This document shows positions 11,738-43,771 of a stretch of DNA of 64,000 nt, piece by piece (the stretch's first letter is position 1; each line of letters starts with the position of its first letter). The notes under the pieces are model-generated. The model searched no databases. It was given only the letters and a program-made list of their open reading frames with translations, and was not told the DNA's origin. The DNA comes from Dictyostelium discoideum. Taxonomy: Eukaryota. The stretch spans positions 768,001 through 832,000 of the forward strand of contig CM000151.3 of NCBI GenBank assembly GCA_000004695.1, in the 5' to 3' direction. The translations under genes and the position numbers were made by a program.

Positions 11738-14211
11738 TTATACATCATCTGGATCGATTTCAGATTGATTAAAATTTTTTGATAATCTTTTCTTTTGTAT
11801 TATTGATTGATTTTCATTATCTTTTTCTAAATTTTCATCTTTTTCTAAATTTTCATCTTTTTCTAAATTTTCATCTTTTTCCAACTTTTCTACTTTTTGA
11901 CAATCTTCAACTATATTATTTTGATTATTTTGATTATTTTCAATTTCATTTTCATCATTTTGATTTTCTAAATCAAGTTTTGAATCTTGTTCAGCACTTG
12001 TACAACTATCACTACTGAAATGAGCTAATCTCGAATGATTATGTTGAAGATTAGGAATTTCACTATTTGAATAGTTTTTAATTTGTGGTAATTTCTCTTC
12101 AGATTCATCAGAATCTTCAAATTCTAAACCATTTGATTTTGATTTTTGTTTCTCTAATGAAAGTGAGAAACTTGATGATTTTGTATTTGTTGCAAATGTT
12201 TGATTCAATGCAAGACCTTGTGTTGCCATCATATAAAACTTACTACCAAACAATAGTGATATACTAATTAAAGTTGTAACAATTGCACATACTACAATGG
12301 TTATCACTTGACTTGCAACTGATTGTGGTGATACCATTAATGGAATAACAATGAATAAACAAAATGTAATGATATAAATACTCGATGCGATTGGTTTTGA
12401 TTCATTAAATTCTTCAATATCAACAGCTTTGATTTTAAATGAAATAAAACATGCTGCCAATAATTTAATACCATGAAAAACCAATAATATATATAACGCA
12501 ACTGAACCTTGATCATTACTTGAACAAACATTAGCATATTGATACTTTGTTAATGAATCAATACCAATTCTAGATTCTGATCTTATATCACCCAAACCTT
12601 GCCATAATGCTAAAATCAATACATCAGCAGCTAATATACCAGCTACAAATGGATACAATTTCCAATTTGTTATTGAACGTTTCTTTAATTTTGGATTATC
12701 AAATAGTAACCAAATTCTCCAATTCTTTACTAACAAACTACCCAAGAAAATTGTATAACCAATACTTAATAACCAAACTCTAGCACCACAAATACCATCA
12801 GTTGGTGATAGTGAAAATATAATACAACCAGAAAAAATAATAATACAACCAAATAAAATCAATAAACAAAATATTGGACTTGCTGATTTAATTATTTTTG
12901 CATGTCTAAACATTATTACTAACACCATTGATATAATACAAAACAAAATACAAAATCCAGAAACAATTGTTAATCCAAGTTTCATTGAATTTGAATAATC
13001 AACCTATATCATAAAATTAAAATAAAAAATATTAATATTTCAAATTTAATATTGTTTTTATTTTAATTTTTCACACTTACAAATTCAATTGGAATTGTAT
13101 ATAAACCAAGATTAATAGTTTTTGAAATATCAGTACCTTTTAATAATAATTTAGTATTTTTAAATTCCATATCATTTGCACAACCATTTGAATCAAAATT
13201 TAAATTAATTTGACTATACATTGGATTACATCTAAATGGTTGATAGGAACTATTTTTTAATTTTTCAATTTCAAGAGAAACAAGTTTTTGAACTTCAGAT
13301 GGAACACGATAACTAAATGTATCGAATAGCAAAGAACCACCCTCAGCTAATGTTGTATAGTAGTCAGTGTATTCTGGCCAGGTATCATTTAAGATATGGC
13401 CAGCGTATTTAATGAAAACATCACTCCAATCTGTGATATAGGAAAGAGCGATATCACTACCCCAAATTAAACGATTTGAAAAACCGGTAATGCCCAATGC
13501 CATTTTACCACTATCCATCAACGCCTTTTGAACAGACATATCATCTTGTGACATACCGATGAAATCTGCTCCATTGGAAATTAACATTTGTGATGCTTTA
13601 TATGCAACCTCTGGATTATACCATGAGCCAGTGTATGCATTTAAAAATGTTACATTTTTTCTTGATGCCAATGCACCCAAATAAAAACTATTGGAATTGG
13701 CAAGTGCCAATATTTGAGGACCTGGCGAAATAAACCCAACTGTACCACTGGTTGTTAAATATCCAGATACAAGACCAAGTGTATAATGTAAAAGATGAGT
13801 ATTAAAATTTATAACAGCAACTTTTGGTAAATCATCTGGAACCGGTCTGCCTCTACCTCTAATTAACCAATAGATATCTTTATCTCTATGTAATCTTGCA
13901 TATTCATAACCGATACTTGTATGAACACTTGATGAAATGACAATGAAATTTGCACCTTTTTTAATTGAATCTTCAATTGCTTGTTTGGCCAAATCAATTG
14001 ATACTTCAAGATTTTTATAACACAACGACATCTCCAAATTCAACGCTGATTCTGCTTTAATTCTCGCATTATTCATTTGATAATTATATCCCATATCACT
14101 CCAATCACCACTTAATAATACTGATATTTTACATTGTTTTAATGAATTTATATATTTTAAATTAAATAAAAATGTAATAAATAAAATAATTAAAAATTTT
14201 AATTTATTCAT
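11738..14211 (-). CDS. class C GPCR with Bmp/PnrA-like extracellular domain, Grl-family member C; exons 13081..14211 and 11738..13003
   Basis: Signal peptide MNKLKFLIILFITFLF. Bmp motif KISVLLSGDWSDMGYNYQMNNA. Donor ...IPIEF|gtaagtgtg. The 77-nt intron is 13004..13080, and the acceptor is atatag|GTTGATTATTCAAATTCA ATG. The 7TM domain is nearly identical to gene B. The C-tail carries a (LEKDEN)4 repeat. Confidence 0.88.
11815..11900. repeat. 21-bp tandem repeat (~4 copies) encoding the LEKDEN x4 repeat in the C-terminal tail of GPCR gene C
   Basis: The plus strand shows tctaaattttcatctttttc repeated. On the minus strand this translates to ...KLEKDENLEKDENLEKDENLEKDNEN. Confidence 0.8.
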
Positions 14212-15831: not shown

Positions 15832-16785
15832 ATGAAATCAATTCAAAAATTACAAAAAACATGGTTAATTTCTGGAAGTTCAAAAGGTTTAGGATTCTCT
15901 TTATTAATAAAATTATTAAAATCTGGTTTTAATGTTGCAGCATTTACAAGAAATAAAGAAACTATTGAACAATCCATTATTGAATTTGAAAATGATGAAA
16001 ATGATGAAATCAAAATTGATAAAACCAATTTATTAATAATACAAGTTGATATAACTGATAATGAAAATGTAAAGAAATCAATTGATCAAGTTATTGAAAG
16101 ATTTGGAAGTATTGATGTTGTTACCAATTGCGCAGGGTATGGATTATTTGGAGCATTTGAATATTGTAGTGAACAAGAAGTGTTTAAACAATTCCAAGTG
16201 AACCTTTTTGGTACTTTTAATGTTGTAAGAAATTCAATACCACATTTAAGAAATAATAGTAATAATACACTTGGACCTAGAATCTACAACATATCATCCA
16301 TATGTGGATTCTTTTCATCATTTGCTGGAATATCAATGTACAATTCGTCAAAATCAGCAATTGATGGATTTTCAGATAGTTTGAATGCAGAATTACGGGA
16401 AAAGAATATACATGTCACTGTTGTGAATATCGGTGGTTTGAGAACATCGTTTTTGAAAGCAAATGGTGATAGTGTTTTGGCAAAGGATAATGACAGGGAT
16501 ACCTATAGAAGTGCAACAGATATCATTGATAAACATTTCAATGAAATCAATGGTAATCAATTAGGTGATCCAAATAAAGTTGCAGATATCTTAATTTCAA
16601 TGGCTATTAATAATACAGAACCTCCAATGCATTTATTCTTAGGTTCAGATTCAATTTGTTTAGCTCAATTAAAATTAAAATTATTATCTGAAGAAATTGA
16701 AAAATATAAATCATTATCAACTTCAATTGATTTTAATAATTCTAAACCATTTGAACTAAGTCATTATATATCTTCAAAAAAATAA
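15832..16785 (+). CDS. short-chain dehydrogenase/reductase (SDR) family oxidoreductase, single exon, 317 aa
   Basis: Cofactor-binding TGxxxGxG motif (ISGSSKGLGFSL). NxAG motif (TNCAGYG). Catalytic S...YxxxK (SSICG...YNSSKSA). Uninterrupted ORF with Dictyostelium codon bias. Confidence 0.9.
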   Translation: MKSIQKLQKTWLISGSSKGLGFSLLIKLLKSGFNVAAFTRNKETIEQSIIEFENDENDEIKIDKTNLLIIQVDITDNENVKKSIDQVIERFGSIDVVTNCAGYGLFGAFEYCSEQEVFKQFQVNLFGTFNVVRNSIPHLRNNSNNTLGPRIYNISSICGFFSSFAGISMYNSSKSAIDGFSDSLNAELREKNIHVTVVNIGGLRTSFLKANGDSVLAKDNDRDTYRSATDIIDKHFNEINGNQLGDPNKVADILISMAINNTEPPMHLFLGSDSICLAQLKLKLLSEEIEKYKSLSTSIDFNNSKPFELSHYISSKK

Positions 16786-17168
16786 TAAAAATAATGAAAA
16801 TAATAATACTAATAATAATAATAATATAAAATAAAATAAAAATAAATTATTCATTTATTTCTTAAAAAAAATTTCGTGTGATACCACGAATTGTGGGTGG
16901 GAAATTTATGAATTAATATCTTTATTTCCGAGGTTTGTTTTATTTTCTCCAAATAAAAAAAAAAAACCTAAAAATATTATTTTTTTTTTTATTTTATTTT
17001 TTTTTTTTTTTTTAAATTTTTTTTTTTTTATGACAAAAAAATTAGATATTTTACTGTAAAAAAAAAACACAACACTGGTTTTTTTTTTTTTTTTTTTTAA
17101 ATTCGATCAGTATTGTATATATATTTAACAAGTTGTTCTCGCAACAATTTAACCAACTTTTGTATAAT

Positions 17169-17203
<35 letters not shown>

Positions 17204-17457
17204 CAATATTTCTTAATATAATAATAATAATAAATAATATAAAAATATAAACAAATATAAATATAAATTATATAATATACATATATACATGAAATAAATT
17301 TAATAATAATAATAAAAATTATATAAATATAGATAAAAAACAATAAAACAATAAAATAAAAAATAAAAATAAAAATAAAACAACTAAATATAGATATAAA
17401 AATAAAAATAAAAAAAATAAAAAATAAAAAATAAAAAATAAAAAATAAAAAATAAAA

Positions 17458-17736
17458 ATGGAGCAATATGAAGATAAATCAGGTCTATTATTAGTTCAAC
17501 TAAATCAATTATCAGATAATAGATCAAAGAAAGTATTACAGGGTTTCGTTAAAGATGTTTTAACTTATGAAAAATCAAAAATTGGTACTCAACTCACAGA
17601 TAGCGAAACTGAATTAGGAGTATCTAAATCATTAGTACAATCATCAAAACAACAAAATATATCATCAACTTATTTCCTAGATTTATGTAATAAACATATA
17701 ATAAATTCAGAATTTACAAGTAGTTATTTATATTAA
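17458..17736 (+). CDS. hypothetical small protein, 92 aa
   Basis: ATG-initiated ORF with typical Dictyostelium A/T third-position bias. It sits in an otherwise non-coding AT-rich spacer preceded by an (AAAAAT)-like repeat. No domain recognised. Confidence 0.4.
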   Translation: MEQYEDKSGLLLVQLNQLSDNRSKKVLQGFVKDVLTYEKSKIGTQLTDSETELGVSKSLVQSSKQQNISSTYFLDLCNKHIINSEFTSSYLY

Positions 17737-17909
17737 ATATGGAAAAAAAAAAAAAAATTGACAAAAAAAAAAGTAAGTAAAAAAAGAAAGAATTAATAAT
17801 GTAAAAAAGAAGTCTTCTTTTATCTTTTAAACCTCTTTTTTTTTTTTTTTTTTTCTATTTATTTATATTATATATATATATTTTTTTTTTTTTTTATTTT
17901 CTATTAATC

Positions 17910-17988
<79 letters not shown>

Positions 17989-19267
17989 ATGTGCGATTCT
18001 ATTTTTAAATACATTAAAAATAATAACACTAAACTCAAAATTATGAATCATTTGTTACATCATAATAAATTATATATATCACTATCAATATATCTTTCTA
18101 TATAATCGTATTAATAAAAAAACAATAAGGAAAACATAAAAAAAAATACCATATAAAAATTATAGTGGTTGTATTTTCATCGAGATTAAAAAAAAAAAAA
18201 AAAATTAAAAAAAAATTAAAAAATAAAAAAAAAAAATTAACATCTTAAATCTTAAAATCAATCACATTCACACCCTAACAATAACAACAACAACATATAT
18301 ACCAACATTTCAAAATATTCGCTCACACACAATAAACACCACATTCACACAATTAGCCCACAAACACAATAAACTCCATAAACATTGATTTAACAAAGAA
18401 GTTGGATTTTTCTTTTTTTTTTTTTTCTTTTTTTTAAAAAAAAAATATTGTGGGTGTTGTGTGTTTGTGTTTGACAATAAGGTTTTATGTTTTTCTTTTT
18501 TTTTTTTTTTTTTTTTAATAATTCCACATTAACCAACTCAAAATTTACTATTTTAATTCAACTCACACACACATTCCACACCAAAAGTAATATAACTCCT
18601 TATCATTATCATTTTTTTTATTTTTTTATTTTTTTTTTTTATTTTTTTTATTTTTATTTTTTTTTTTTTTGTTAAATTTTGTTTTTTTATTTTTTTATAT
18701 TCTTTTTTTTTTATTCATTTTTTTTTTTTTCCATACAATTTTTTTTTTTTTTTCTTTTACCATCAACAACACCATCAACTACAATAACTGCATTGTAAAT
18801 ATTTTTGTTTATTTTAAATCCATCACCCAATTTTAAAAAAAAAAAAAAAAAAAAACTTATAGTTTTTTATTTTTTTTTTTTGGTTTTTTTTTTTTGGTTT
18901 TTTTTCCATCATTTGTTTTTTTTCTTGAATAATCTATTTTTTTCAATCAAAAAAAAAAAAAAAAAAAACAATAATGATAATGGTAAAAAAAAAAAAAAAA
19001 AAAAAACAACCAAACAAAAAAAAAAACAAAAAAAAACCAATACCACCACCACATACTGATAAAATTTTTATATAATACTTCAATTTTTATTTTTAATCTT
19101 TGTTTTTATTCTATATTTAAATTTTTTAAATTTTTTATTTTATTTTTATTTTTTTTTTCAAAAACAACTTGTATTTCTAATATTAAAATAATTTTACCAA
19201 AAAAAAATAAAAAAAAATAAAAAAAAAAATTATTTAAATTAAATTATTATTTTTTTTTTTTTTTTAG

Positions 19268-19461
19268 ATCAACCTAGCATTTTATGGAAAATTGTGGAAT
19301 ATATTATTAGTGAATTGAATTATTTAGATAGAATTTTAGATTCGTATCAAGAGAAAAAAGAAAATACAAAAATATTGGGATCTACCTCCATAAGACTTGA
19401 GGAAATATCTTATTTATTATCTTATATACAATCATCACCAAAAATGCATACAGGAGAATAC
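19268..19461 (+). CDS. internal 5' exon, probably belonging to the downstream PH/RapGAP gene (encodes DQPSILWKIVEYIISELNYLDRILDSYQEKKENTKILGSTSIRLEEISYLLSYIQSSPKMHTGEY)
   Basis: The exon is bounded by a poly-T...ttag acceptor at 19266-67 and a consensus GTAAGT donor at 19462. It has no in-frame ATG, so an upstream mini-exon is implied. The candidate is ATGATAATG G|gtaaaa at 18974..18983, which has the correct phase. The next 729 nt downstream contain no AG dinucleotide until ttacag at 20189-90. That acceptor is in phase with the large ORF. Confidence 0.5.
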
Positions 19462-20110
19462 GTAAGTGTTGGATTTTTTTATTTTTTTTTTTTCTATATT
19501 AAAATATTTATTTTTATTATTATTATTTTTTTATATTTTTATATTTTTTTTTTTTTATTATAAACATATATAAATACAAAAACAATTGTCCCCCCTCATC
19601 AACACCACCACTACCACCAACACCACCACATTTAATTGAAATTTTATTTTAAAAATCAAATTATTACTTTTTTTTTTTATTTGATTAAAATTTTTTTTTA
19701 TTTTTATTTATTTTTTTATTTTTTAACTTAAAACTTTTATTATTATTTATTTTTATTTATTTTTCCACAAAAACATTGTATTATCATAATTTTTATTTAT
19801 TTTTTTATTTTTATTTTTATTTTCACCTTATTAATTAATTTATTTTAATTTATTTTAAAATTTTTAATTATTTATTTTTTTAATTAATTTTTTTTATTAT
19901 TTATTTTTATTTAAATCTACAATATTTTTTTATTTTTTTAATTTTTTTTTCGTTATTATCTTTTATTTTTTTATTTTCTAAACACATTTGGAAAAAAAAA
20001 AAATAAATAAAAAACTAAACAAAAAACCATATTAACCATGAAAATTAAATTATTTATTAAAAAAAAAAAAAAATTTAATTATAATCATCGACATTATTAT
20101 TATCATCATC

Positions 20111-20142
<32 letters not shown>

Positions 20143-20190
20143 ATACAACAACCACAAATACAACAACAACAAATACAACAAAAATTACAG

Positions 20191-23100
20191 TCAGAATTAT
20201 TAATCGGTATTAATGGACATATGAAAAAGATAACGTTAAAATTAAAGAATAATTTAGAAGAGGATCAATATTCAAATTGTGTAAAATATGGGTGGATTGA
20301 GAAAAGATGTGGTAAAAATCAATCATTTAGTTCATGGAAAAGAATGTGGTTTATATTAAAAGATAGTAAACTTACATATTATATTAAAGAAAAGAATTTA
20401 AAGAAAAGATCATCAACAATTGGTAGTACTCAAGAATTTTTTAAACAACAACATGGAATAGATAATAATAATTGTACAAATAGTAATAGTAATAATAATA
20501 ATAATAACTCTGATTTGATTCACTTATCAGCACCTTCATTATCATCATCAACATCATCAACAATATCACCAATAAGCTCATCATCATCATTAACAACTAC
20601 AACAACTACTACAACAACAACTACAAATGCAAACACAAATAATGGATTATCAGATTCAATAAATCATGTATATTTAGAAGGTGAACTTGGTAAAAAGAAA
20701 GAAGGTAAAGGATGGAAAGTTAGATGGATGAAACTATTGGAACATTCATTAGTTTATTATAAATCATCAAAAGATAAAGAACCATTGGGTATAGTTAATT
20801 TGAATGAGTGTCAAGATTGTGAAGTTAATAAAGAATCATCGAATAAATTCGTTGTTGTACATTCAAGTAATCGATACTATTTTAAAACCAATACAAAACA
20901 AGAACTCACTCAATGGGTTAAATCCGTTAAATCTAGAATACCTTCAATCAATCAAACAAAGATGGATTTAGATCAATTCCAATTAAAAGGTGTCATAGAA
21001 TTTAATAGTATACAACAAATCGCTGAAACTTTCAAATTTAATAGTCAACCAAATTGTCTAACAATTACAACTGATGAAAAAGCATATTATCTATCATTCG
21101 ATTCAAATAAAGATAAACTGGATTGGTTAAATCAATTGAATTTAACTATAAATAAATTTAAAGGTGGTTTCAATAGTGGTGGTGGTTCAAATAATTCTTC
21201 ACCATCATCTTTACAATCACAACAAGCTAAGGAGAGTGGTAATGGTGGTAGTTTAAGTCCAAATATACTTGGTAACTTTAAATCATCTATTAAACCATGG
21301 AGATTCTCATCTTCACCTTCTCAAGGTCGTGTTTCAATTGGAGGTGGTGGTGATAGATCATCAACTCAAGTTAAATTTGTTGATAATCCTTTATCAAAAA
21401 GTTCAAATAAAGAGGAGTTTGATGGTGGTGAATATGGTTCACAAATTTTACCAAGAAAATCAACAATCATTGGTCCAAATGGTGGTGTTAAAGTTAGTAC
21501 AAGTGGTGCTGTTGAATTATCACCAGTTTTAATTTCAAGTAATAATAACAATAATAATACAATAAGTTCAAGTGGTAATTCAATACCAACTTGTTTAAGT
21601 GATTTAATTAATGAATCAAGTGATAATGAAGATGGTGATGATTTAAAGATGATGATACCAGAATCATTAAAGAATGAAATGATGAGAAGATCAGCAATTA
21701 GTTCATTGAAAAATTTTAAGTTGGAAATTTTTATTTGGTCAAATCATCAAGAGGTTTTCACATTTCTTTTCTCTGATTCAGTGTTGGTAGATCAAGTTAA
21801 AGCATTTGCTTTTAAAAAGATACCTTCATTAGCAAATTTATCAGTATTGGATTATAGATTAGGTATTGATGAAGATACACTATTGGAAGTGGAATTCTTA
21901 AAGTTTATATATAGTCATACAATGGTTGAATTGGCATTAAAGACTTGTGGTATCGTAAAGATTGGTATTTTCCATCATCGTAAGGATAGAAGAGTTAAAG
22001 AGAAATTATATTCAGATAAATTCTATGGTCATCTTTTATCACAATCACCAGATGGTCGTAAAGGTAATGGTGTTGGTATTGGTGGTAATGGTATACCTAT
22101 TGAGTATTCAAGAAGTGAACCAAATCTTCAATCATGTCTATCATCTTCACCTTCAACTAGAGAAACTATGGTACCATCTTCACCATCATCACATCAATTA
22201 ATAACACCACCACCATCATTAAAACAATATGAACAACAATTATCATCATCATCATCATCATCGTCACAACAACTACAACTACAACTACAACAACAAGAAC
22301 AAGAACAACTATTACAAGAACAACCAGAAGCTGAACAATCACAACCAGAACCACAACCACAATTAGAACCAGAATCAGAAATAGAGATTGAAGAATTAGA
22401 ACAACCAATTGAAGAACTATTGAATATTTCAACTACACCAATATCAATACGTAGTAATTCAATTTTATCAAGTTCAACATCTGCATCATCATCACCATCT
22501 TCAACACCATCATTGACACCAGTAATTGAAAGACAACAAAAAATGTCAGCAGCAGGTTGGCATAGTGTTAATCCAAGTGTAACATTGAATCAACGTAGAC
22601 AATTGATTAGTGGTTGTCCAGGTTGGAATATTGAAGTATCGAATCCAACTTCAACATTCACCAGTCAAGGTTTCAAACCAAAATTCGATAAACAAGAGCA
22701 TGGATTCTATAGACGTTATAATTTCGATGGTACAAGTACGGTTCAAAGCTTTTTAGGTGTAGATATGAAAATGGGACCATTGGCATTCAGTTTGGCAAAA
22801 GATGCCAATGATAACTATCGTGGTGTACTTCATACAAAACATGGCGCAAAGACAATTAGTGAAGATTCTAAAAATATCGTTGGTATTTTAAATCTCCTTT
22901 CATTGAGTAAAAAAGTAAAGACAAAGAAAGTGGTCTCCCATTTAATTGGATTATTGGATCCATCGATCGATGCAAAACTTTTAAATTTAGCTTCAAATCA
23001 ATCAGAGTTACAAAAAGAACTCTTATCATTTGAGGAACGTCAAACCACAAGTGGTTTTAAATTTGGTATGGTCTATTGCAGACATGGTCAAGTCACAGAC

Positions 23101-23676
23101 GATGAAATCTTCTCCAATAAACAAGGTAGTCCAGAGTGGGACGAGTTCTTATCATTGATTGGTGACAAGATTGAATTGGTCGGTTGGCCACATTATAGTG
23201 CTGGTTTGGATGTTAAATTCAATTCAACAGGTACTCACTCTCTATACACCGATTATCATGGAAATGAAGTTATGTTCCATGTTTCAACAATGTTACCTTT
23301 CTCCACTACCGATTATCAACAAATTGAAAGAAAACGTCAAGTTGGCAATGATATTTGTGTTGTCATCTTTAATGATGGTACTCTCTCTTATATGCCAAAT
23401 ACAATCACTTCTCAATTCAATCATGTTATCATTCTTGTTCAATACGATAAACAAAACAATGGTTATAAAGTTTCAATGGCTTGTAAAGATGGTGTTAAAT
23501 CACCTTTCGAACCCCTATCTCCAAATAATTTAATTAAAAAATCTGATATTAAAGATTTCATTTTAACTAAATTAATTAATGGTGAATTGGCTTCATTACA
23601 AGCTCCTGTATTTGCTTCAAAAATTACTAGAACTAGAGAATCTTTATTAAATTATTATATTTCTCAATTTTTATAA
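20191..23676 (+). CDS. Rap GTPase-activating protein with N-terminal PH domains (main exon). If translation instead starts at the upstream ATG, the ORF begins at 20038.
   Basis: Two or three PH-like modules are present (GWIEKRCGKNQSFSSWKRMWFILKDSKLTYY, EGELGKKKEGKGWKVRWMKLLEHSLVYYKSSKD...QWVKSVKS and a third). The C-terminal RapGAP catalytic domain contains the ...GNDICVVIFNDG...ITSQFNHVIILV motif. Ser/Thr/Gln-rich linkers separate the modules. The stop TAA is at 23674-76. Confidence 0.85.
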   Translation, partial: SELLIGINGHMKKITLKLKNNLEEDQYSNCVKYGWIEKRCGKNQSFSSWKRMWFILKDSKLTYYIKEKNLKKRSSTIGSTQEFFKQQHGIDNNNCTNSNSNNNNNNSDLIHLSAPSLSSSTSSTISPISSSSSLTTTTTTTTTTTNANTNNGLSDSINHVYLEGELGKKKEGKGWKVRWMKLLEHSLVYYKSSKDKEPLGIVNLNECQDCEVNKESSNKFVVVHSSNRYYFKTNTKQELTQWVKSVKSRIPSINQTKMDLDQFQLKGVIEFNSIQQIAETFKFNSQPNCLTITTDEKAYYLSFDSNKDKLDWLNQLNLTINKFKGGFNSGGGSNNSSPSSLQSQQAKESGNGGSLSPNILGNFKSSIKPWRFSSSPSQGRVSIGGGGDRSSTQVKFVDNPLSKSSNKEEFDGGEYGSQILPRKSTIIGPNGGVKVSTSGAVELSPVLISSNNNNNNTISSSGNSIPTCLSDLINESSDNEDGDDLKMMIPESLKNEMMRRSAISSLKNFKLEIFIWSNHQEVFTFLFSDSVLVDQVKAFAFKKIPSLANLSVLDYRLGIDEDTLLEVEFLKFIYSHTMVELALKTCGIVKIGIFHHRKDRRVKEKLYSDKFYGHLLSQSPDGRKGNGVGIGGNGIPIEYSRSEPNLQSCLSSSPSTRETMVPSSPSSHQLITPPPSLKQYEQQLSSSSSSSSQQLQLQLQQQEQEQLLQEQPEAEQSQPEPQPQLEPESEIEIEELEQPIEELLNISTTPISIRSNSILSSSTSASSSPSSTPSLTPVIERQQKMSAAGWHSVNPSVTLNQRRQLISGCPGWNIEVSNPTSTFTSQGFKPKFDKQEHGFYRRYNFDGTSTVQSFLGVDMKMGPLAFSLAKDANDNYRGVLHTKHGAKTISEDSKNIVGILNLLSLSKKVKTKKVVSHLIGLLDPSIDAKLLNLASNQSELQKELLSFEERQTTSGFKFGMVYCRHGQVTDDEIFSNKQGSPEWDEFLSLIGDKIELVGWPHYSAGLDVKFNSTGTHSLYTDYHGNEVMFHVSTMLPFSTTDYQQIERKRQVGNDICVVIFNDGTLSYMPNTITSQFNHVIILVQYDKQNNGYKVSMACKDGVKSPFEPLSPNNLIKKSDIKDFILTKLINGELASLQAPVFASKITRTRESLLNYYISQFL

Positions 23677-24552: not shown

Positions 24553-28032
<3,480 letters not shown>

Positions 28033-30397: not shown

Positions 30398-30847
30398 ATG
30401 AAAATAAAGTTATTGTTTATTTTTATATTGTTTCAATTTTTTTGCAATTCAATAAAAGCAACAGAACATTTTGTACATGGTGATCTAATAAAATATCCTT
30501 CTGCCTCATATGCAACTTCATGCTCCTTTTATTTCAGTGTTGTATTAACAAATTTAGAACAAGAAGTTTCCCGTATTTCAATTGAAGATCCTTTCTATTC
30601 TGAAGGTTTTTATCCCTCCAAAGATAAAAAAACGGTTATTCTAAAGACGTCTAAAGGAGATTTACAATTAGGAAACACTACTTTGAACTTTTCAGTATTT
30701 AATTCTTCAAATTCAAAATTTTATTCTTTTAATGTAACTTGTTCTTGTAATAGTAAGTATTTTTTATTTTATTTTTTTATATTTTTATTTTATTTTTTTT
30801 TATTTTATTCAATTTAAATTTTATTATTTTATTTTTATTAATTCTTA

Positions 30848-30896
<49 letters not shown>

Positions 30897-33800
30897 GAAT
30901 TGGAATAGAATTTAATTTGACAAATTACAAAGTCATTCCATTATCAAGTGGTTTTGTATATAGTTATTTATGCATTGTATTTAAAATTATAGATTTTCCT
31001 GAAGATATTATATTAGGGGGAAATTCAAATGTTGGTGATATTATTGGTTCAGGATATTTAGGAAATAATAATTATTATATGCAATTTAATAGTATAAAAT
31101 CAATTGCACCATCAGTAAATACCTCAATTATGTTTTTAAACAATGAATGGTTATCATTTATGTTTGATCTTCCTCTTCAAATTAGTATGTATACAATTGT
31201 AAATAATTATATTTATATTTCATAATAAAAATATTGAAAAAAAAAAAAAAATTAACATTATTTTATTAAAAAAAATAAATTAAAAAATAAAGATACATAC
31301 ACAGAAATTGAATCATTAGAATATTATCCAAATAATAATTATACCTTCAAAAATAATATATTAGGTTTTGGAGATTTAAAATTAAAAACCAATTCATCAA
31401 ATTTATTGATAACTTCAAGCTTTATTTCACCTTTTAAGGTTGGAGGAAATAATATAGATGAAGTTTTATATTTGATTCCATTTTTTAATATAATACCAAC
31501 TACATTTTCAATTAAAATTCAGAATGGTGCTTCTTTTATTGAAAAATATATTAATTTTGATTTGAGGAGTAAGTATAATAAATATATAGTATTGTTTTAC
31601 TTTTTTTAATAATTTATAATTATTACCCTTTTACTTACTTTTTTTTTTTTTTTTTTTTTTTAAACAATAAAAAAAAAAGATTTGGAAAATAAAGTGGTAG
31701 TTGTTAATTTGGGAAGTTACCAAAATAATGGTGAATATACTAGTTTAGAAGGTGTTCAAATAAAAAATATTTCAATTTTAGATTCTATTTATTTAGTAGT
31801 ACCACCAAAGATGATTGAAAAACAATTTTCATTCCCATTTGGATTTATTGGTGGAAATTCAAATCAATCATTCCTTTCATTATCATTTCTTTCATATCAA
31901 AGCTATGGAATAGATTCTATTTCAATTGGAATTGGTAACACCAATTTAGGCTCCTTTAAAACCACCGGTTCAACTGATGTTGCCCCACCATTATTATTAG
32001 CCTATGAAATAAGTATTTCAAATTATAATACAGTACTTTTCAAATTAAAAGTAAGCGACAACCAAAGCGGTATAAAATTAATACGATCGACTTCAGCATT
32101 GGTCATGCTTGGTGAATCATTGGTTTCAGGTGATTCATTAAATGCTACACTTGAACTTAGATTTCCATTTGATCAATATCTTACCTTAATTATGTTATGT
32201 GATAATGCATTGAATTGTAATACCTACAGTTTTGACTCTTATTATTTTATACAATCACCAAATATTATAAGCTATTTAAAACCACCAAATCAATTATTTT
32301 CAATACCAAAAGGTAAGACTATAGTCCATCCACAATACTAATCATAAAATAATTTCTTTTATTTCTATTTTATTAATTTTTTTTTTTTTTATTATTGTAA
32401 TTTAGAATTTGATATTAGTAATTGTATTCTTGATATTTCATTTAAATATAATGATTTAGCGGTTACAGATAAATCAATTGCAAATGTTATGTATTTAGAT
32501 ATAGTAAATTTCCCAACCGATAGAGATTTTATCATTAATTTATTTCCAAATCCAAGTATCTCTTTTTTAATACCACCAACTTATATTGCAACATATAATA
32601 ATGTAACAAAGAAATTTGAATGTGAATTTATTGTACCTGCCAATATTAATATTGGCCCACTACAATACTATTTAACTTTTAATAGTTTTATTGTTTTTAG
32701 TTTCTCTTTACCAAATCATTTCCAATTAAATATTAAGGAATCATTATATGCCGATTTTATTGGTCCAATTGCAACTAAAGTTTTAAAATATCAAAATGGT
32801 GGTAGTGGTGGTTCAAATGTATTTGGATGGGAATTTTCATTTGAAAATGATATAAATGGATATAATGAGGGTTATATTCTAGTAAGAGGTTCAATTGATA
32901 TGGCAATTAGAAATATTACAGGTGTATTATCAAGTGGAACAATATTTAGTGGCACTTATAGTTTTAGTGTAAACATTTCTATTACTTGTATATCTCAAAC
33001 TTATTCTATCGTTTATGCAAAATTTATTGATACTCAAGGACAACAAACAGTATTTAAAGTGGCAAATGAATTAAAATTTGAAATGTTAATGAATCCATTT
33101 TACCAACTTATAAAAAACGATGAAAGTTTTATAGATATCGATCTTGTTTGCGACCCAACTTTTTTATCATCAGCTGGAACAACGATAAACCCAAGTTTAA
33201 TTGAATTTACAATTTCAAAAACTGTGTTGGAAGTATTTTCAATTGATAGAAATGTAACATTTAGTTATAATGCATATCATCCAGATGGTTTACTTGATTC
33301 AATACATCCAATAATTTATCTATCATCATATGATCAAGAATTTATTACTGGAATTCAATCAACAACAATGACTCCAAAAAACTCAACCGTTATGAAATAT
33401 ATAACAACCATTGAAGTTCCAATAGGATTTGGTTATCCTGGTGGAATTATTGTAAGTTGTTATGGATTTATTTCAAATGCAGGTACACATAGTGGTTTTA
33501 CATCAAACCTTTTAAAAAAATCTGGTTTTCAATATAAAATTAATTCAGCAAAGAATTCAATGAATGTCATATTAACTGGAAATAGTGAATTATCAAGTAA
33601 TGGTGGGAAATTAATTATTTATGGTAGATTTTTAAGCTCAATTGCAACCGTTACTGTTAAATATAAAAATATAGAAAGTACGTACACACCAATACAACTA
33701 TCAGATACTCAATTCCTTTTAGATTCTATTTCAGCTTCAGACTATTATATTACAATAACAGCAAAAACTACATCTGGTGCTTCTTCTAGTAGTCTTATTG

Positions 33801-41927: not shown

Positions 41928-42027
41928 ATGAATCAAGCCGTAGCAGAATCAATTAATAAATCATTAAAATCTTCAACAGCAGATTATACCCCAAAAGGAT
42001 ATCATATTACCGAATTAGAATCTGGTA

Positions 42028-42066
<39 letters not shown>

Positions 42067-42099
42067 AAAATAATTTTTTTTTTTTTTTAAAAAATTAAA

Positions 42100-42166
<67 letters not shown>

Positions 42167-43771
42167 CAAATTAAATTAGATTCAATTTATTTAGATGAAC
42201 ATTTTTCAGGTAATGCAAAGATTTTCCATAATCCAGCAGTAGCAGTATTATATGAACAAGCATTGGCATTTGAACATGGATCAGCAATTACAAGTACAGG
42301 TGCATTGGTAACCAGATCAGGTGTAAAGACTGGAAGATCACCAAAGGATAAGAGAATTGTAAAGGAACCATCATCACAAGATGATATTTGGTGGGGACCA
42401 GTCAATATTGCAATGGATGATCTTTCATTTATGATCAATCGTGAAAGAGCCATCGATTATTTGAACACTCAAGAAAAGATCTACGTTATCGATGGTTACG
42501 CAGGATGGGATCCAAAATATCGTATCAAGGTTAGAGTCATTTGCGCACGTGCCTACCATGCTCTCTTTATGCACAATATGTTAATTCGTCCAGCCAATAG
42601 AGAAGAGTTAAGAAATTTTGGAGAACCAGATTACACCATTTACAATGCAGGTCAATTCCCAGCAAATCGTTACACTAAGGGTATGTCTTCAAGCTCATCA
42701 ATCGCCATTGATTTCGCTCGTAAGGAAATGGTTATTTTGGGTACTCAATACGCTGGTGAAATGAAAAAAGGTATTCTCACCATCATGATGTATCTCATGC
42801 CAAAGATGGGTGTCTTACCATTACATTCCTCTTGCAATCAAGCTCGTAACAATGGTGATACCACATTATTCTTTGGTCTCTCTGGTACTGGTAAAACTAC
42901 ATTATCCGCCGATATTAACCGTGAATTAATTGGTGATGATGAACATGTTTGGACCGATACTGGTTGTTTCAATATCGAAGGTGGTTGCTATGCAAAATGT
43001 ATCGATCTCTCTCGTGAAAAGGAACCAGAGATCTTTGATGCCATCAAGTTTGGTGCTGTTTTAGAGAATGTCGTCTACAATGAGTACTCTCGTAAGGTCG
43101 ATTACAATGATGTCTCTATCACTGAGAACACCCGTTGTGCCTACCCATTGGAACATATCCCAAATGCCAAATTCCCAGCTATTGCCGGTCATCCAAAGAA
43201 TATCATTATGTTAACTTGTGATGCTTTTGGTATTCTCCCACCAGTATCTCGTTTAGATGCCAATCAAGTTATGTACCATTTCATTCAAGGTTATACCGCC
43301 AAAGTTGCCGGTACTGAAGTTGGTGTCACCGAACCAACTGCAACCTTTTCAAGTTGTTATGGTGAACCATTCATCGTATGGCATCCAACCAAATACGCTG
43401 AAATGTTGGCTTCTCAACTCCATAAACATTCAGCTCGTGCTTGGTTAATTAATACTGGTTGGACTGGTGGTTCTCATGGTGTTGGTTCTCGTATTAAATT
43501 GGCCTACACTCGTGCCATCATCGATGCCATTCACAGTGGAGAACTTGAAAAAATTCCAACCACTAAAATGGATGTTTTCGGTTTCCAAGTACCAAATAGT
43601 TGTCCAGGTGTTCCATCTGAAATTTTAATGCCAATTAATGGTTGGGCTGATAAAGAGAAATATGTTTCAACTATGCATAAATTGGCTAAATTATTTATTG
43701 AAAATTTCAAAAAATTCCAAGATAAAGCTTCACCAGAACTTGTAGCAGCCGGTCCAATATTACCACAATAA
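41928..43771 (+). CDS. pckA: phosphoenolpyruvate carboxykinase (ATP); exons 41928..42024 and 42180..43771
   Basis: PEPCK-ATP signatures: ...[14 protein letters not shown], the kinase-1a P-loop [12 protein letters not shown], and ...GDDEH.W.... Exon 1 reads [32 protein letters not shown]. It ends TCT G|gtaagt. The 155-nt intron is poly-T rich and ends ttaaattag. An alternative acceptor at 42194 is also in phase. The total is 1689 nt, or 563 codons. Confidence 0.92.

Follow-up and report, generated by a model that had tools for sequence, protein, structure and literature searches.

A probable three-exon structure for rapgap3 of Dictyostelium discoideum that would take in the uncharacterized gene DDB_G0271804

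The DNA analysed here (the window, 64,000 nucleotides [nt] long) is chr2:768001-832000 of Dictyostelium discoideum. It is very AT-rich and has coding features of the Dictyostelium type. A long open reading frame (ORF) on its + strand, at window positions 20038..23676, matches Pfam PH in three places (E=2e-30) and, at its C-terminal end, Rap_GAP (E=1e-56). Three PH domains followed by Rap_GAP are the published architecture of D. discoideum RapGAP3 (PMC4012079). The gene is rapgap3, with the accession DDB_G0271806 cited in PMC6166812, and its product, which has three PH domains, is a GTPase-activating protein for Rap1. rapgap3 most likely (with a probability of about 0.8) has the three exons 17458..17719, 19268..19461, and 20191..23676, which encode a product of 1313 amino acids (aa). 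The start codon used in the reference model, the ATG at 19444, would then drop a conserved N-terminus of 147 residues and leave exon 1 as an orphan 'gene' of 92 aa. The merge with this gene, DDB_G0271804, is previously unrecorded. It involves ordinary splicing biology and is a correction of the annotation. The features discussed below are as follows.

17458..17719, + strand: putative exon 1, 262 nt, M1 to T87 plus 1 nt, phase 1; at present most of DDB_G0271804
17720..19267, + strand: putative intron 1, 1548 nt, phase 1; weak donor ACAA/GTAGTT, acceptor t16-AG
18863..19265, + strand: AG-free zone at the 3' end of intron 1, with AGs only at 18861 and 19266; 12 G; probability of finding no AG, P(0), of 0.008
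19250..19265, + strand: T16 tract, the pyrimidine tract of the exon 2 acceptor; it could also be a core-promoter poly-T
19268..19461, + strand: exon 2, 194 nt; enters in phase 1 and leaves in phase 0
19444..19446, + strand: reference start codon (MHTGEY...) in AAAAATG context; its Met aligns with N and S in the orthologues and is not conserved
19462..20190, + strand: intron 2, 729 nt, phase 0, GTAAGT...ttacAG, 87% A+T, with CCACC-rich and CAA-repeat stretches
20038..20190, + strand: N-terminus of the long ORF, MKIKLFIKKKKK...poly-Q (MKIKLF); intronic, translated in KAM9951554.1 (P0151)
20191..23676, + strand: exon 3, 3486 nt including the stop codon; three PH domains, central region, and C-terminal Rap_GAP; 100% identical to Q55AN8

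Public models of the gene

The header 'rapgap3 on chromosome 2 position 787444 to 791676' of dictyBase is reproduced in a phosphoproteomics supplement (PMC6397043). This span of 4233 bp corresponds to 19444..23676 of the window; it starts at the ATG and ends at the stop codon of the ORF, and it puts window base 1 at chr2:768001 (12 x 64000 + 1). The same supplement (PMC6397043) gives the RapGAP3 phosphosites T82 (LKKRSSTIGSTQE) and T431 (ILPRKSTIIGPNG). Both site numbers and the length of 1167 aa are reproduced only by exon 19444..19461 (MHTGEY), intron 19462..20190, and exon 20191..23676. The sites fall at 127 and 476 in the unspliced ORF and at 144 and 493 in an earlier model of the locus made from the same DNA (the original prediction), which began the gene with a micro-exon upstream of exon 2. 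An exhaustive search of representative proteins, by which the orthologues described below were also found, returned the reference protein Q55AN8/XP_645484.1. It has 1167 aa, is 100% identical, and begins with MHTGEY. Note that the reference annotation takes only the last 18 nt (19444..19461) of exon 19268..19461.

Public models of rapgap3 are in conflict. While the AX4 model (XP_645484/Q55AN8, 1167 aa) is spliced, KAM9951554.1 (ACTFIT_002235, 1212 aa) is the unspliced ORF 20038..23676 from another D. discoideum assembly, and its start lies inside the 729-nt intron. Neither of them agrees with the 1313-aa model supported by the orthologues. The proposed model shares with the reference model the locus, the 729-nt intron, the large 3' exon, and the domain architecture. 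It adds 147 N-terminal residues (17458..17719 and 19268..19443) and an intron of 1548 nt. The ORF annotated as DDB_G0271804 is unchanged; it is read here as exon 1 of rapgap3 running through its donor into the intron. The merged sequences (1313 aa, or 1314 aa with an alternative donor discussed below) had no exact match in a collection of 15 billion proteins.

Exons 1 and 2 and the conserved N-terminal region

Two orthologues were used. The first is XP_012752290.1 (P0003) of Acytostelium subglobosum, 1134 aa long. The second is a 1214-aa protein of a dictyostelid (P0152, ~30% GC), the full-length member of the P0002 cluster. It is encoded without interruption on three independent contigs, Ga0256895_1002871, Ga0256782_1002588, and SRR8446436_12872 (loci L002, L003, and L004), which come from two JGI samples (3300028164 and 3300026445) and the SRA run SRR8446436 and have CA-rich leaders of 240-531 nt. 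Since their 3' ends are identical and their leaders differ in length, these contigs look like transcripts. Both orthologues have the same architecture as the proposed protein, including the N-terminal region, and A. subglobosum also shares the position and phase of intron 2. The length of the S/T-rich linker differs from D. discoideum in both. Among the 154 proteins searched, only these two match the exon 1 or exon 2 segment.

The N-terminal region of P0152 and P0003 has the conserved pattern M-x-x-[YH]-E...QLSD-x-R-x-K; LDLC..H; PS[IL][IL]WKI..Y.I.EL..L. In D. discoideum this pattern is present only if exons 1 and 2 are joined. No Pfam domain was found in the N-terminal extension. A word-indexed protein search with the N-terminus of the original prediction, of the merged model, or of the orthologues gave no match, and a metagenome scan with the N-terminal alignment returned only an already-known contig.

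Exon 2 has the acceptor t16-AG/AT at 19266-67 and the donor TAC/GTAAGT at 19462. The original prediction had proposed this exon with a good acceptor and a GTAAGT donor, and both are as it described them. It had also stated that the exon contains no in-frame ATG. This is wrong; the ATG at 19444..19446 (..SSPK M HTGEY) is in frame, six codons before the donor. Upstream of this ATG, however, some 58-59 codons are open back to the acceptor, and there is no in-frame ATG among them. An upstream exon must therefore supply the start.

To train a model of codon log-odds, 19 long ORFs of the window served as the coding set and the AT-rich non-coding DNA of the window as the background. The unannotated part of exon 2 scores +30.4 in the coding frame and -17 to -55 in the other five frames. 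For comparison, in-frame coding chunks score 25-89 (5th-95th percentile) and non-coding segments -77 on average. Only 3% of non-coding segments of equal length are open; their scores average -43, with a 95th percentile of -5. The GC contents at the three codon positions (GC1/GC2/GC3) of exon 2 are 0.29/0.29/0.17, a weak periodicity in the correct phase.

The exon 2 peptide, QPSILWKIVEYIISELNYLDRILD...RLEEISYLLSYIQSSPK, is 57% identical (BLASTP, E=1e-19) to EPSIIWKIISYSIAELDYLDRALD...RLEEVSSMLAFLQSSPR of P0002/P0152 and 43% identical (BLASTP, E=6e-13) to QPSLLWKILEYSIVELDHLEQQLD...RLDEISSLINYL of A. subglobosum P0003. Residues 88-147 of the merged model have 56% (P0152) and 43% (P0003) identity, compared with 61% and 49% for the annotated part of the protein. 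The unannotated segment thus equals the annotated protein in its degree of conservation and is therefore coding. On this evidence, 19268..19461 is a genuine internal coding exon that needs an exon upstream of it. The original prediction had called it internal and in need of an upstream partner, and the orthologue conservation and the single-frame coding score bear this out.

The ORF that would supply the start is 17458..17736, which is annotated as DDB_G0271804 (Q75JD8/XP_645483, 'putative uncharacterized protein', 92 aa). Its start, MEQYEDKSGLLLVQLNQLSDNRSKKVLQGFVKDV..., matches the orthologue N-termini MDRYEAKSNQLISLMSQLSDSRAKAALQKICQDL... and MDDHEQDDSSRQVLALIHQLSDARAKKVLIAFCQDL... The alignment with P0152 runs from Met to Met (38% over 47 aa, E=3e-8), and residues 7-41 of A. 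subglobosum P0003 are matched at 46% (E=2e-7). The C-terminal part, YFLDLCNKHIINSEFT, aligns with LIDSCFDHIKKALLIP and LLDLCYSHSKRSLTSS, which stand directly before the exon 2 homologue. An in-frame stop lies four codons upstream of the ATG at 17458, and the start Mets of the orthologues are likewise preceded by in-frame stops. The coding score of exon 1 is +94.

Exon 1 would be spliced to exon 2 in D. discoideum through the weak donor GTAGTT, as the orthologues suggest. The GT at 17720 ends exon 1 in phase 1, which is what the acceptor 19267/19268 requires, and the junction codon A/AT encodes Asn. The spacing of C..H..PS..W is the same in all three proteins, with 18 residues from C to W once the exon is spliced at 17720. 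This is the only phase-1 GT that keeps both the conserved CNKH..EFT and the 18-residue spacing. The 92-aa ORF runs five codons past it to a stop; SSYLY and the stop codon are intronic in the merged model. In A. subglobosum there is no intron at this position, and the homologues of exons 1 and 2 lie in one continuous genomic ORF of 157 codons.

Other donors were considered and rejected. The alternative at 17723 (GTTATT) is also in phase 1; it is poorer and adds one residue relative to both orthologues, giving a product of 1314 aa. Among the phase-1 GTs in 17740..19266 that follow an in-frame ATG, the one at 17773 (ATG 17739, poly-K, with 15 AGs downstream) and those at 18587 and 18671 (ATG 18487, poly-F) have sequences that are neither coding-like nor conserved.

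If the reference model is complete, the two genes result from gene fission. DDB_G0271804 is then an independent gene of 92 aa, and 19268..19443 is a 5' untranslated region that is open by chance. The two genes are annotated separately in public databases, the donor at 17720 is weak, intron 1 is very long and AG-rich, and promoter-like sequence precedes exon 2, all of which would fit. This explanation is nevertheless improbable. The unannotated codons are conserved to the same degree as the annotated protein, they are open where few non-coding segments of that length are, and their codon bias is specific to one frame. DDB_G0271804 also stops just after a phase-compatible GT, at the very point from which the orthologues go on into the homologue of exon 2.

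The original prediction had looked for the start nearer to exon 2, in a 10-nt initiator micro-exon at 18974..18983 said to be in the right phase. This stretch, part of the AG-free zone before the acceptor, does have an ATG, and GTAAAA could plausibly serve as donor. The sequence of 18974..18989, however, is ATGATAATGGTAAAAA; it has a single GT, at 18983-84, so that the boundary is ATGATAATG/GTAAAA. One G had been counted twice. With the GT donor the micro-exon has 9 nt and leaves in phase 0; joined to 19268 it reads MIMINLAFYGKLWNILLVN and then a stop, after 19 codons. A 10-nt exon in phase would require TA as a 'donor'. The micro-exon has no counterpart in the orthologues, which have ~87 conserved residues upstream of exon 2 rather than three, and the coding sequence that they indicate lies 1.5 kb further upstream, at 17458..17719. 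The probability of this model is negligible; the sequence itself refutes it, and it is effectively excluded.

In the region 16800..20300, no frame-specific coding signal was found outside the proposed exons. The scores of CA-rich and CAA-repeat stretches are a compositional effect, since they arise in several frames and on the two strands alike. Rfam and tRNA scans of the same region gave no match, so the length of the introns is not due to a hidden RNA gene. DDB_G0271804 was not mentioned in the paper texts or supplements searched.

Putative intron 1 has several features of its own. An uninterrupted poly-T of 74 nt at 17914..17987 adds to its length and may be sensitive to replication slippage or assembly. 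At 18496..18590 a leader-like stretch that is C/A-rich and has no ATG, aattccacattaaccaactc...cacacacacattccacaccaaaa, comes after a T21 tract. It ends at a donor-like site, AAAA/GTAATA (18587), and might serve as another, non-coding first exon joined to 19268; between this site and the 19268 acceptor there is only one AG (18861). The sole WCTAAY hexamer of intron 1 is TCTAAT at 19176, in the AG-free zone and 87 nt short of the 3' splice site; about one is expected by chance (a rough estimate), and it is uninformative.

Intron 2 and the AG-free stretches

The original prediction had proposed a long 5' intron at 19462..20190 with the acceptor ttacag/TCA GAA at 20190/20191, in phase with the RapGAP ORF. 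The acceptor and its phase are confirmed in the sequence, and the intron finds support in the reference model, where it is already annotated, and in the conserved intron position in A. subglobosum. Its boundaries are TAC/GTAAGT and ttacAG/TCA GAA, and the other clear introns of the window have the same type of donor. Its removal restores the frame as ..SSPKMHTGEY/SELLIGINGHMKK, which aligns without gaps to both orthologues. The A. subglobosum gene has an intron of 64 nt in phase 0 (L001, 3472..3535) after the homologous EY codon, at the same position as intron 2. The junction reads ..NEY/GTATGT and, 64 nt on, ..AAAAG/AAC GAA (NEL..). The 1214-aa orthologue reads ..REY/AELL.. there without an insertion. 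The intron is thus 64 nt in A. subglobosum and 729 nt in D. discoideum. As judged from these comparisons, 19462..20190 is a genuine intron.

It follows that the N-terminus of the long ORF (MKIKLF...poly-Q) is intronic, as had been claimed. This segment is absent from both orthologues (no homologous counterpart was found in either, in the search among the 154 proteins), and the reference model uses the intron that contains it. If there were no intron, translation would run through the uninterrupted ORF 20038..23676 (1212 aa, as in KAM9951554.1), with the transcript starting within 19462..20037. The frame is open and has an ATG, a protein model of this form is deposited for another D. discoideum assembly, and CAA-encoded poly-Q is common in Dictyostelium proteins. 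The segment has GC1/GC2/GC3 of 0.53/0.04/0.04, however, which is that of a pure CAA repeat. In such a repeat all three frames are open, and an open frame is therefore uninformative here. At the place of the first 51 residues, which have no orthologue counterpart, the orthologues continue into the exon 2 homologue. The intron position is kept in A. subglobosum, and the published site numbering follows the spliced model. An unspliced 1212-aa protein has very little probability and is effectively excluded, as is the micro-exon model.

The AG-free stretch of intron 2 is real. The original prediction had described 19462..20190 as free of AG, and this holds between the AG at 19465, within the GTAAGT donor, and the next one on the + strand at 20189, in the acceptor. 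No AG-free gap on either strand of the window exceeds this one of 724 nt; those that follow it in length have 405, 387, and 366 nt. Its interior, 19468..20188 (721 nt), contains 12 G, 81 C, and no AG, and the earlier count of about 12 G was correct. With 12 G and a rate of 0.33 for A before G in the non-coding DNA of the window, 3.6 AGs are expected in the interior, with P(0)=0.013; when the mononucleotides of the stretch were shuffled, P(0 AG) was 0.003. Whole-window shuffles preserved composition in blocks of 50-200 nt, so that the local paucity of G was retained. A gap of at least 724 nt on either strand occurred in one of 1200 of these shuffles, and the region 19468..20188 was AG-free in none. 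The G content of the stretch is 1.7%, compared with a mean of 5.3% for the non-coding DNA of the window, and its C content is 11%. The AG-free stretch is therefore beyond chance, while its length comes mostly from the depletion of G.

The AG-free interior may reflect the very low G content of the sense strand together with selection against competing AGs. Such selection would act because splicing uses the first AG that follows the branch site. The 17 internal AGs of putative intron 1, on the other hand, indicate that freedom from AG throughout an intron is no splicing requirement here. None of these 17 AGs lies in the last 405 nt of intron 1. The intron also contains, besides the T74 run, CA-rich stretches. 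The original prediction had pointed to this second AG-free stretch, 18863..19265, and it exists, although a gap of 405 nt is not exceptional on its own; the typical window maximum in the shuffles is ~415. The AG-free zones of 724 and 405 nt much exceed the usual distance between branch point and 3' splice site, and only the former goes beyond the shuffle expectation. No CTRAY branch-site motif was found anywhere in intron 2, which is not statistically informative.

Long AG-free regions upstream of the 3' splice site are also known from the human AG dinucleotide exclusion zones with distant branch points (Gooding et al. 2006, PMC1431707). The rapgap3 zone is alike in this respect. It differs in that it spans the whole of intron 2, is largely explained by the paucity of G, has no CTRAY, and is not known to be linked to regulated splicing.

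The other clear introns of the window are also poor in G, and in them the first downstream AG is the frame-compatible acceptor. Examples are as follows.

24771..25057, + strand: G-poor intron, 287 nt
30753..30908, + strand: G-poor intron
42025..42179, + strand: G-poor intron
13080..13004, - strand: G-poor intron

The first of them belongs to the next downstream gene, at 24553..27785 (+ strand). After the ATG at 24553 and the donor GTATGT at 24771, there are 287 nt without AG up to ..AAATAG at 25057, from which a phase-compatible long ORF continues to 27785. This gap is among the longest AG-free gaps of the window.

Segments of about 120 nt in the two rapgap3 introns, 19036..19154 (intron 1) and 19613..19724 (intron 2), are 72% identical (blastn, E=7e-9). 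Each has a CCACCACCACA-type motif and then AT-rich sequence, and a local duplication or a common low-complexity element is possible. A repeat search of both introns against the window gave low-complexity matches only.

Weight of the merged model and its significance

D. discoideum introns (n=17300) are 89% A+T, with a median length of 103 nt, a mean of 143 nt, and a standard deviation (SD) of 158 (PMC2483917). The introns of rapgap3 resemble them in being GT-AG, AT-rich, and G-poor, and intron 2 also has the usual GTAAGT. They differ in length and, in intron 1, in the donor GTAGTT. The 729 nt of intron 2 are ~3.7 SD above the species mean and the 1548 nt of intron 1 are ~8.9 SD above it. The extreme length of both plausibly explains why gene finders broke the gene.

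Several points weigh against the three-exon model. The junction between exons 1 and 2 was inferred from orthologues only. There are just two of these; one is a gene prediction, whose exon 1 is a plain continuous ORF, and the other comes from environmental or transcriptome contigs. The donor GTAGTT departs from the GTAAGT and GTATGT of the other clear introns of the window, and intron 1, with its 17 internal AGs, is about 9 SD longer than the mean. The T16 tract, which ends 2 nt before exon 2, resembles Dictyostelium start sites, and a transcript beginning there would give the 1167-aa protein. Finally, a green fluorescent protein (GFP) fusion, GFP-RapGAP3, made from the coding sequence for 1167 aa, localises to the leading edge and the cell cortex (PMC4012079). 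The N-terminal extension is therefore not needed for that behaviour.

The T16 tract raises the possibility of two promoters and two isoforms, an addition to the three-exon model. A distal promoter upstream of 17458 would give the 1313-aa protein by way of both introns, and an internal one near 19267 would give the 1167-aa protein, with the remaining 176 nt of exon 2 as leader. Dictyostelium poly-T tracts end ~2 bp upstream of start sites, with TATA ~29 bp upstream (PMC3371697), and the position of the T16 tract matches this start signature. The short form, from an internal promoter, may thus be made alongside the long one. In most of the other clear introns of the window no long T run adjoins the AG, and the reference ATG at 19444 is in a good context (AAAAATG). 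On the other hand, no match to TATAAA(A/T)(A/T) was found in 18152..19569, where the only near-match is TATTTAAA at 19231..19238. The Met at 19444 is not conserved in the orthologues, and all orthologue contigs that reach the 5' end encode the long form. The leader would also carry an upstream ORF of eight codons at 19284..19310 (MENCGIYY and a stop), whose ATG is out of frame with exon 2; this ORF is relevant only if the transcript starts at about 19267. Two isoforms of this kind are possible, with the odds rather against them.

A wider claim would combine several of these points. In it RapGAP3 has 1313 aa, with 147 residues missing from all constructs and entries, and its long introns reflect an unusual choice of 3' splice site, through a far-off branch point or strict use of the first AG, contain an internal promoter by which the long and short isoforms are switched during development, or both. 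This combination is doubtful.

The 729-nt intron is already annotated and is nothing new in itself. The practical value of the three-exon model is the correction of the gene model. RapGAP3 is a studied regulator of Rap1, of phosphatidylinositol 3,4-bisphosphate (PI(3,4)P2) feedback, and of chemotaxis. Jeon et al. reportedly characterised rapGAP3 in 2009 and cloned it by reverse transcription polymerase chain reaction (RT-PCR); PMC4012079 and PMC6166812 also deal with its characterisation. Constructs have been built from the authors' full rapGAP3 cDNA coding sequence (PMC4012079), and the site numbers in PMC6397043 are those of the 1167-aa model. If the 1313-aa form is native, a conserved N-terminal region has been absent from functional tests so far, the orphan gene DDB_G0271804 would have to be retired, and proteomic searches would miss the peptides of the region. 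Among the peptides of the merged model are HIINSEFTNQPSILWK, which spans the junction of exons 1 and 2, IVEYIISELNYLDR, ILGSTSIR, and LEEISYLLSYIQSSPK. The case also illustrates that very long introns lead gene finders to split Dictyostelium genes.

The next gene upstream is a 317-aa ORF of the short-chain dehydrogenase/reductase type at 15832..16785 on the + strand (Pfam adh_short, E=5e-38). It is separated from exon 1 by a spacer of ~670 nt (16786..17457), which contains T-runs of 13-20 nt at 16997..17098 followed by A-rich sequence and is likely to be the promoter and leader of the long form of rapgap3.

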